Source of the DNA: Perkinsus olseni
Taxonomy: Eukaryota
Assembly: GCA_013115125.1 (NCBI GenBank)
Contig: JABANN010000277.1
Span: 1-44,093 of the forward strand
Length of the DNA: 44,093 bases
Direction: 5' to 3'
The notes beneath the pieces were generated by a model. That model was not told the origin of the DNA. It ran no database searches and saw only the letters and a list, made by a program, of their open reading frames with translations. This document shows positions 10,520 to 11,160 of this stretch, in pieces. How positions within the stretch are numbered: the stretch's first letter is position 1; every line of letters begins with the position of its first letter. The translations under genes were made by a program, and so were the position numbers.

Positions 10520-11160
10520 TCCCGCACTCACCGGCCTCCGGCGTAGAGCCACACAAGTGACAGATGACAGTCCATATGCACATCGCACGACTCACACCGT
10601 CATCTCCGGCTGGTTCGGATATATACATCCGCGGGCCAGTACGGCGTATCTTAGGTTGAAGGACAGCTGATACGGACAACCTTCCTTCGGTGCCCGTCAA
10701 CCAAGCGGCTCGCTATACCCCACGTCTTTTGATCCGGATCCGCACGATATTCTTCTATCATAGTATCACGGAGCTTCATAGCTCGATGCAGCTGCCTGTT
10801 GTGCACACAGGCCTGTATCAGGTACGTATACCTGAGGATCCACCATCACCGCCGCCGCCACATCCTCAATTTGTGGAACGTCAACGCTTATACAAGAACG
10901 TTGGCTCGGAAGCTGTAGGCCCTATAGAGGCCCTCAACGGTTAAGGACCGTCCTCAACGGGATGGTTGAGGCTCAGCCATATTGAAAGCCTCCAACAGGC
11001 TGTTGGAGGCTGTTGGCAACAGCCCCCCCCCACCCTTACTAGTAACTCCACCGAGATCGACAACTTATAATTACCCGCTGACGCGTTCAACCGAAAGCGC
11101 ACTCCTAGGGCGACTAGCTCACTTCCAAGGCTTGGTGCTACTTGATTCGCCCTCATTTCA
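10520..11160 (-). pseudogene. Decayed partial duplicate (exons plus introns) of PPR gene segment ~14833-15395
   Basis: Colinear high similarity to 14833-15395 (e.g. GATATTCTTCTATCATAGTATC, CAGGCCTGTATCAGG, GAGGATCCACCATCACCGCCGCC). Retains introns, lacks the 5' part, and has frame-breaking insertions at ~10930-11024. Confidence 0.85.

Follow-up and report, generated by a model that had tools for sequence, protein, structure and literature searches.

Palindromic insertions with an eight-base geometry in a stretch of the Perkinsus olseni genome are probably footprints of hAT-type transposon excision

The stretch of DNA analysed here (the window) comprises the 44,093 nucleotides (nt) of contig JABANN010000277.1 from Perkinsus olseni (assembly GCA_013115125.1). 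Its G+C content is ~50-58 %, and it carries many short palindromes with a single base at the centre. A palindrome was recorded where a perfect inverted repeat had arms of at least 7 nt, and was assigned to a bin according to its true minimal spacer. Fifty-three palindromes with a 1-nt spacer were found, compared to 2.75 on average, and never more than 7, in 20 dinucleotide-preserving shuffles. The counts for spacers of 0 to 9 nt were 2, 53, 1, 6, 7, 4, 4, 2, 4 and 4, and the enrichment was confined to spacer 1, with the other spacer lengths at chance. An apparent excess at spacers 3, 5 and 7 was rejected, as it was a nested recount of long spacer-1 palindromes and was gone when the true minimal spacer was used. 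Even (spacer-0) palindromes were at chance both with arms of at least 7 nt (2 versus 2.75) and with arms of at least 6 nt (9 versus 10.8). The arms of the 53 were 7 nt long in 33 cases, 8 in nine, 9 in four, 10 in two, 12 in three, and 14 and 16 in one each. The excess of 1-nt-spacer palindromes to which a sequence-only reading of this DNA had pointed was therefore borne out within the window, and the six sites it had singled out (10987-11024, 3994-4012, 6646-6664, 36649-36663 and 38014-38028, with the paralogues at 15257-15269 and 9915) read as it had described them.

The 53 centres fell into 29 clusters, of which 20 were in 1-13,000, one was at 28,580-28,617 and eight were in 32,998-39,356. 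No spacer-1 palindrome with an arm of at least 7 nt was found in 13,001-28,500 or past 39,400. Within the two populated stretches, which together span roughly 20 kb, the density is ~1-2 per kb. The sequence-only reading had held intact open reading frames (ORFs) to be free of such insertions, which was not confirmed; by a crude ORF proxy, 16 of the 53 centres lay in stop-free frames of at least 90 codons, and such frames make up 62 % of the window. None of the 53 was within the long ORFs at 7267-8397 and 21458-24916. Purifying selection outside the clusters, local hopping or a combination of the two may account for the clustering.

Many of the palindromes overlap in pairs, and the spacing of the paired centres was not random. 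A distance of 7 nt between the centres was seen in 19 pairs when arms of at least 5 nt were accepted, in 14 with arms of at least 6 nt and in nine with arms of at least 7 nt. The runner-up was a distance of 8, with four pairs (arms at least 5 nt) or three (arms at least 6 nt), and at arms of at least 7 nt the distances 8, 11 and 17 tied with two pairs each. In a distance-7 pair, a single ancestral 8-mer (T, with bases T1 to T8) is replaced by 22 nt consisting of T1-T7, the reverse complement (revcomp) of T1-T8, and T2-T8, for a net gain of 14 nt. This geometry was overlooked in the sequence-only reading. It can be expressed as a rule for two centres, p1 and p2, under which the 7 bases to the left of p1 followed by the complement of p1 are identical to the complement of p2 followed by the 7 bases to the right of p2. 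At a centre distance (d) of 7 the rule held in 14 cases compared to 0.67 expected, and 300 shuffles never gave more than 6 cases at any distance. Trial duplication lengths of 6, 7, 9 and 10 gave no peak. Nine of the 14 cases are perfect 22-mers, four have one substitution in the inverted middle, and in one (7130), possibly a chance case, the middle is unrelated. A further four or five fit at seven of the eight positions (2295/2302/2309, 8617, 28596 and 11417, the last judged by eye).

The rule was also met by centres that are 15, 17, 17 and 39 nt apart (37142/37157, 10999/11016, 39315/39332 and 1981/2020, respectively). The arms at these four wide-spaced sites are 7-18 nt long, and the probability of such agreement by chance is ~1.5e-5 per pair. 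The ancestral offset between the two centres is thus constant at 8 bp, whatever the length of the arms. The structures, referred to below as scars, are listed here in order of position; no strand is assigned to them.

1969-2038: two-sided long-arm scar, 8-bp rule met with CTTGTGTG; left arm 12 nt, centre 1981; right palindrome with centre 2020 and arm 10 nt, extendable to 18 nt with one mismatch
2153-2186: two arm-7 palindromes 19 nt apart that break the 8-bp rule with each other; one-sided class
3803-3857: compound cluster in which palindromes overlap, with centres at 3821 and 3829 (8 nt apart)
3994-4012: arm-9 palindrome within a 14-nt insertion relative to three paralogues; one-sided
4967-5035: compound cluster with arms of 8, 14, 6 and 8 nt
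5287-5301, 5331-5345, 9567-9581, 10279-10293, 11342-11356, 33006-33020 and 36780-36794: one-sided examples
6648-6669: perfect 22-nt scar, T1-7 + revcomp(T1-8) + T2-8, where T = TTCTATTT
8725-8746: perfect 22-nt scar, T = TTCCGATT
9084-9105: 22-nt scar whose inverted middle has one substitution, T = GTTCTCAA
9262-9283, 37378-37399 and 38235-38256: three more 22-nt scars with one substitution
9320-9341: perfect 22-nt scar, T = CTAGCAGC
10938-10976: 39-nt insertion relative to a paralogue, made up of decayed palindromes and parsed by eye
10987-11024: two-sided complex scar, target copy CCAACAGC; left centre G at 10999, right centre G at 11016
11732-11753: perfect 22-nt scar, T = ATCTGCTT
12971-12992: perfect 22-nt scar, T = TTTTCATA
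33851-33872: perfect 22-nt scar, T = GTCTGAAT
36649-36670: perfect 22-nt scar, T = CATGGCAT; 14 nt longer than the paralogue near 40495, which has a single CACGGGAT
37133-37167: two-sided scar, centres separated by 15 nt, F1 + revcomp(T) + revcomp(T) + F2, where T = GTCGTGCG
37951-37972: perfect 22-nt scar, T = CGCCAGTA
38014-38035: perfect 22-nt scar, T = ATGAACAG
39308-39348: two-sided scar, T = TGAACTAG; left arm 7 nt, right arm 16 nt

The four compound scars with wide-spaced centres can each be parsed as two hairpin-derived ends joined at 4-7 nt of microhomology or with filler, and on the same parsing the distance-7 class represents a full in-register overlap. At 10987-11024, palindromic runs of 12 nt (left) and 8 nt (right) are joined by a 4-nt overlap, GGCT (11008-11011). 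The ends at 39308-39348 are joined at a 7-nt overlap (39316-39322) supplied by an ancestral direct repeat. At 37142/37157 the inverted 8-mer is present twice in tandem, which reads as filled-in ends joined either blunt or at a 5-nt overlap (37147-37151). The arms of the 1969-2038 scar are separated by ~8 nt of filler that matches 2359-2366, possibly by chance. Treating all of 1994-2009 as filler was rejected, as half of it is the right palindrome continuing with one mismatch. The 39-nt insertion at 10938-10976 includes two G centres opposite C residues of the paralogue that are 8 bp apart, and may record repeated events at one site.

Comparison of the window with itself revealed few paralogous stretches, 75-88 % alike. 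In each of the three paralogue alignments that cover palindromic sites, the palindrome was an insertion in one copy, and the 8-mer was single in the paralogues. The insertions are 14 nt at 3994 relative to three paralogues (alignment A1), 14 nt at 36649 (A2), and 26 nt at 10987, relative to the paralogue at 15257-15269, together with the further 39 nt at 10938-10976 (A3). As a rough estimate only, there may be one scar per several tens of substitutions between paralogues. The sequence-only reading had also claimed that the centre base is the complement of the ancestral base. When 14 structures picked solely by their inner 6+6+6 bases were examined, the centre was the complement of the base in the flank copy in 22 of 28 instances, compared to 7 by chance (12 of 14 on the right and 10 of 14 on the left). 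All seven centres that could be polarised with an outgroup obeyed the rule, six using paralogues (10999, 11016, 36656, 36663 and the two centres of the 39-nt insertion) and one (1981) using a diverged strain, X8, described below. The claim stood at these sites, but the polarity at 4003, which it had included, is ambiguous because a small inverted repeat was already present in the ancestral gene family.

Public sequencing runs were used to look for the scars in other data, by aligning contigs of the runs, not raw reads, to window positions 1-13100. Twelve runs from five studies contain words of 3001-13000, with 98-100 % of the sampled words present in six of them. None of the runs is listed as RNA; X7 might conceivably be RNA. 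Contigs of run X5 showed no difference from the window over 723-7908, 7891-10655, 10827-11674 and 11786-13100, those of X7, from another study, matched exactly over 1702-2033 and 3294-4186, and a contig of X10, from a third study, matched exactly over 3801-3980. All of these exactly matching stretches include palindromic sites. The independent support comes from X7 and X10, because X5 may be the window's own source.

Contigs of X8 are 85 % like the window, and at that level some could be paralogues. At 1981/2020, X8 has CTTGTGT followed by GCCA, which is the predicted empty site, with G where the centre base in the window is C; five letters, starting with GCCA, stand in place of 1981-2037. There are four letters for 3798-3851, 12 for 3993-4040 and seven for 4975-5017, and X8 lacks both the palindrome at 3994-4012 and the adjoining arm-8 inverted repeat at 4017-4037. 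The X8 contig across 11687-11800 is 14 letters shorter than the window, and the one across 4085-4472 is 16 letters longer. One X8 contig skips 10938-10976, and for this contig in particular a paralogous origin has to be considered.

We consider it likely that the palindromes are footprints of the excision of hAT-type (Ac/Ds, Hermes) transposons, a known mechanism newly seen in this organism. The centres are 8 bp apart in the ancestral sequence and the 8-mer is single in the paralogues; therefore the ends that were joined already shared an 8-bp duplication, which is the characteristic trace of a transposon that had been inserted and has since left. Enrichment at spacer 1 alone, with two palindromes at spacer 0, agrees with the off-centre nick of hAT elements, unlike that of a flush hairpin. 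The palindromes lack a loop and have at their centre the complement of the base that would have adjoined the element, as would result if the flanks had been nicked one base in and then closed into hairpins. As to hairpins, the sequence-only reading is upheld: there is no loop, and the single central base complements the ancestral one. That reading had cited hAT excision footprints as known background without concluding that the palindromes are such footprints. In the 18 target copies inferred, 17 of the 36 symmetric positions have T (position 2) or A (position 7), compared to a base frequency of ~24 %.

From the geometry and its statistics, together with the polarity and the finding of the scars in independent reads, we infer a transposon, hairpin chemistry and a repair pathway of the following kind. 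An element would insert and duplicate T1-T8. Excision would then nick each flank one base inside the duplication, and the 3'-OH would attack the opposite strand to give flank hairpins with a tip that is the complement of the element-abutting base (T8' on the left, T1' on the right). Host nucleases would open the hairpins at least 7 nt from the tip, and up to at least 18 nt, to leave 3' overhangs that are inverted copies of the flank. Because the inverted 8-mer is present in both overhangs, these could anneal in register, and fill-in would yield T1-7 + revcomp(T1-8) + T2-8, a 14-nt insertion with two overlapping arm-7 palindromes. The longer and compound forms would arise from other microhomologies, blunt joining or joining with filler. 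Scars would be neutral in non-coding or dead DNA and hence accumulate there, and the elements would remain few because they move instead of multiplying. The dominance of the +14 product suggests deep hairpin opening and microhomology-driven joining, and the scarcity of short footprints leads to the same reading. A few persistently active elements could be behind the high scar density.

Three other explanations were considered. Strand-displacing polymerases are able to make inverted chimeras, and the palindromes might on that account be sequencing, amplification or assembly artefacts such as strand-switch chimeras. However, the sites are reproduced letter for letter in contigs from runs of at least three studies (X5, X7 and X10), several insertions are missing in the diverged X8, as polymorphic mutations would be, and four scars carry single later substitutions. 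The occurrence of the same sequence in the contigs of several studies, together with an X8 that is without some of the insertions, shows at the level of contigs that they are not artefacts, and we regard this explanation as extremely improbable. The view of the sequence-only reading that these are real mutations and not sequencing errors agrees with these data. That reading had itself favoured a fold-back repair process acting at many sites with no visible transposon. Such an explanation would involve either repair or template switching by a replicative polymerase or by DNA polymerase theta (Pol theta) in end joining, with copy-back onto the complementary strand and then return. Short template switches and Pol theta templated insertions do yield forward-reverse-forward patches from the immediate flank, as seen here, no transposon is visible in the window, and one-sided arm-7 palindromes without a second target copy, described below, are in keeping with such a process. 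Insertions of these types have variable lengths and no target duplication, and variable switch points set by microhomology would be expected. Here the offset between the turning points is a constant 8 bp, for which fold-back does not account, and it persists where the inverted runs are 12-18 nt long, where filler intervenes (1981/2020) and where the inverted copy is doubled (37142/37157). Snap-back priming requires a loop and local self-complementarity, but the palindromes are loop-less and the centre is the complement of a base that is absent from the folding strand. The site at 10987-11024 would require three successive switches. The constant offset and the single 8-mer in the paralogues thus speak against a transposon-free process, which we think unlikely, and the conclusion that no transposon was involved was probably wrong.

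The same mechanism might instead be driven by another agent, namely another superfamily with flank hairpins and duplications of 8-9 bp (Mutator-like, for example Muta1), or a hAT-like nuclease that has been domesticated and acts on resident sequences. Muta1 has flank hairpins and 8- or 9-bp duplications (PMC5499845, in the part of the text at hand), and a few centres in the window are 8 nt apart, implying a 9-nt middle (3821/3829; 4975/4983/4991). A trial length of 9 nevertheless showed no peak. Muta1 leaves precisely in over 90 % of its excisions in yeast, and its footprint pattern is unlike that of hAT, as far as the available portion of PMC5499845 goes. Odd-centred palindromes are not known for Muta1. 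The one-base off-centre tip is documented for Ac/Ds (PMC5873905), and no such statement for Mutator-like elements (MULEs) was met in the portions of the sources consulted. A domesticated nuclease would not generate the 8-bp duplication. Either agent appears improbable to us.

Several observations weigh against excision of a hAT-type element. A scan for an intact element (an 8-bp direct repeat with terminal inverted repeats, 40-8000 bp apart) found none in the window. In 44 of the 49 ORFs of at least 100 amino acids (aa), the Pfam scan revealed no family and hence no transposase; the other five were outside the scan and overlap an ORF of 1148 aa on the other strand. Rfam gave no matches at gathering thresholds. 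That no transposon is seen in a 44-kb window is expected because a cut-and-paste element would be of low copy number, and the agent itself stays unseen. Two stretches missing in X8 (2600-3436 and 11801-12212) were considered as elements and rejected, as neither an 8-bp duplication nor terminal repeats were apparent by eye; the X8 contigs without them may be paralogue-derived. The papers that were found on Perkinsus transposons report Dada, Merlin-related and Tc1-like elements, not hAT. The centre-base rule is broken in six of the 28 instances, and the target preference is lopsided, with T at position 2 in 12 of 18 sites and A at position 7 in five of 18. The short footprints of classical hAT excision were not found at d=1 or d=2, and only four cases were seen at d=3, two of them copies of each other and a third also found in a paralogue. 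With short footprints scarce, repair would end differently here than in plants and Candida. One-sided palindromes, with an arm of exactly 7 nt and no second target copy, number about a dozen (centres include 2160, 2179, 5294, 5338, 9574, 10286, 11349, 33013 and 36787), and single palindromes have arms of 7 (14), 8 (4) or 9 nt (1). This suggests a preferred hairpin opening at ~7-8 nt, in which case the match to the duplication length would be a coincidence and unexplained. The one-sided class thus needs extra assumptions, either that one end was lost or that there is such an opening preference. The neighbouring pairs 2160/2179 and 11699/11710 break the 8-bp rule, and the ~29 clusters are a very high density for excision scars.

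The scars share features with several known systems. Like the P nucleotides of V(D)J recombination and Transib, they point to hairpin-capped ends opened off-centre to give inverted repeats of the flank. The hairpins in those systems are flush and the resulting palindromes have no centre base, unlike those in the window, where even palindromes, as expected of RAG/Transib-type ends, did not exceed chance. The target duplication of Transib is 5 bp. The flank hairpins of Hermes are reportedly made by a nick one base inside the flank. Hermes elements also generate 8-bp duplications and prefer 5'-nTnnnnAn-3' targets (PMC10368747, in the part at hand). The duplication length is similar; the 17 fitting positions reported above come from 18 sites, the preference here is weak and lopsided, and neither a transposase nor a terminal repeat was observed. 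The scars also resemble the products of Ac/Ds in plants, Saccharomyces cerevisiae and Candida albicans, which, in the portion of PMC5873905 available, include P-nucleotide palindromes centred on the complement of the element-abutting base, both copies of the 8-bp target duplication and microhomology at the joint. According to the same portion, arms in yeast can be as long as 20 nt, and 85-100 % of the joints in yeast and Arabidopsis have microhomology. In contrast to Ac/Ds, one stereotyped product prevails in the window, with the whole 8-mer inverted between 7-nt direct copies (+14 nt), and P-insertions of 0-3 nt, the main type in Candida and a frequent one in plants, are unenriched. The scars in P. 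olseni are also natural, fixed or polymorphic, and dense, with no element seen. The inverted and direct repeats carried by introns in Amoebophrya are a different phenomenon, to judge from the available part of the paper on introners. No report of such scars in Perkinsus or its relatives was found in the literature, in a search that left supplementary files aside.

A possible second class of events was found at 2822-2856, 14492-14526, 15788-15822, 16989-17023, 20206-20240 and 21301-21335. Each consists of two copies of an 8-mer with complemented outer bases and 19 unrelated bases between them, such that the centres are 20 nt apart and the net gain is 27 nt, in frame. The six cases compare to 0.7 expected, and one of 300 shuffles reached six at any distance. 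Both flanks were complementary in six of the nine exact 6-nt repeats at an offset of 27. All but one of the six are located in 14.5-21.3 kb, a region without palindromic scars. The fillers (d=20) had no local template of at least 11 nt, and no consensus among them was found. This in-frame class may be tolerated inside genes.

The ORF at 14776-15255 had been taken for an intact PPR gene, with 10522-10938 as its dead copy. The two are 85 % alike, but the PPR label did not survive examination, as no Pfam family and, in a search limited to near lengths, no homologue of 14776-15255 was found. An ORF of 364 aa at 7306-8400 is 86 % identical to a P. olseni hypothetical protein, and all 28 of its matches, at 43-86 % identity, are from Perkinsus, which identifies the window as nuclear DNA of a species in this genus of alveolates that parasitise molluscs. 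It belongs to a large Perkinsus-specific family, several members of which are in tandem on single contigs, and no Pfam family was found for this copy; some of its relatives are labelled 'peptidase S9 prolyl oligopeptidase' in some sources. Degenerate fragments of sequence near 7306-8400 recur at ~3860-4180, 6420-6590, 9900-10090 and 12650-12920. The uninterrupted 1148-aa ORF at 21455-24901 (minus strand) has an acidic glycine-rich tail, no Pfam family and no palindromic scar.

Other repeats were also present. A ~40-nt sequence at 11634-11677 occurs at many places in the genome, with an X5 contig depth ~10-fold that of its neighbours and loose ends with differing flanks on both sides in four of four runs; it has no repeat within the window and no Rfam match. 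The segment 1-750, where X5 contig depth is 5- to 7-fold over its neighbours, is probably another dispersed repeat. Joints in X5 contigs connect ~39-58 to 11634-11677, and there is a ~22-nt direct repeat at 21-58. A 160-bp segment is present at 35777-35936 and, 1.7 kb away, at 37511-37670 with 100 % identity, and a third copy (39566-39725) is 86-88 % alike. The identical pair suggests that a local duplication took place very recently within the second scar-rich stretch.

A wider role is conceivable, if doubtful, in which hairpin-making cut-and-paste with an 8-bp stagger is a leading source of insertions in the non-coding DNA of Perkinsus and helps to kill duplicated genes. The agent may then be a hAT-like element with persistent hyperactivity and local hopping, or a transposase captured by the host and able to act without a recognisable element. 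On this doubtful view, the scars would record every visit across the genome in readable form, and the stereotyped inverted product would point to an unusual combination of hairpin opening and microhomology repair in this lineage. Polymorphic insertions of 14 bp can serve directly as strain markers, and they can also mislead gene and variant calling. Foreign DNA is reported to integrate at transposable-element sites in Perkinsus marinus (PMC7200600, from the part of the report at hand), and the scars are accordingly of relevance to gene editing and transfection in Perkinsus. They offer a natural read-out of DNA hairpin opening and end joining in perkinsids, on which nothing was found in print. 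If the interpretation as hAT-type footprints is correct, the pattern of 7 bases, an inverted 8-mer and 7 bases would allow past transposon traffic to be dated and mapped where elements are rare. Excision scars, usually too small to recognise, could in that case be a major class of insertion that contributes to the decay of pseudogenes.

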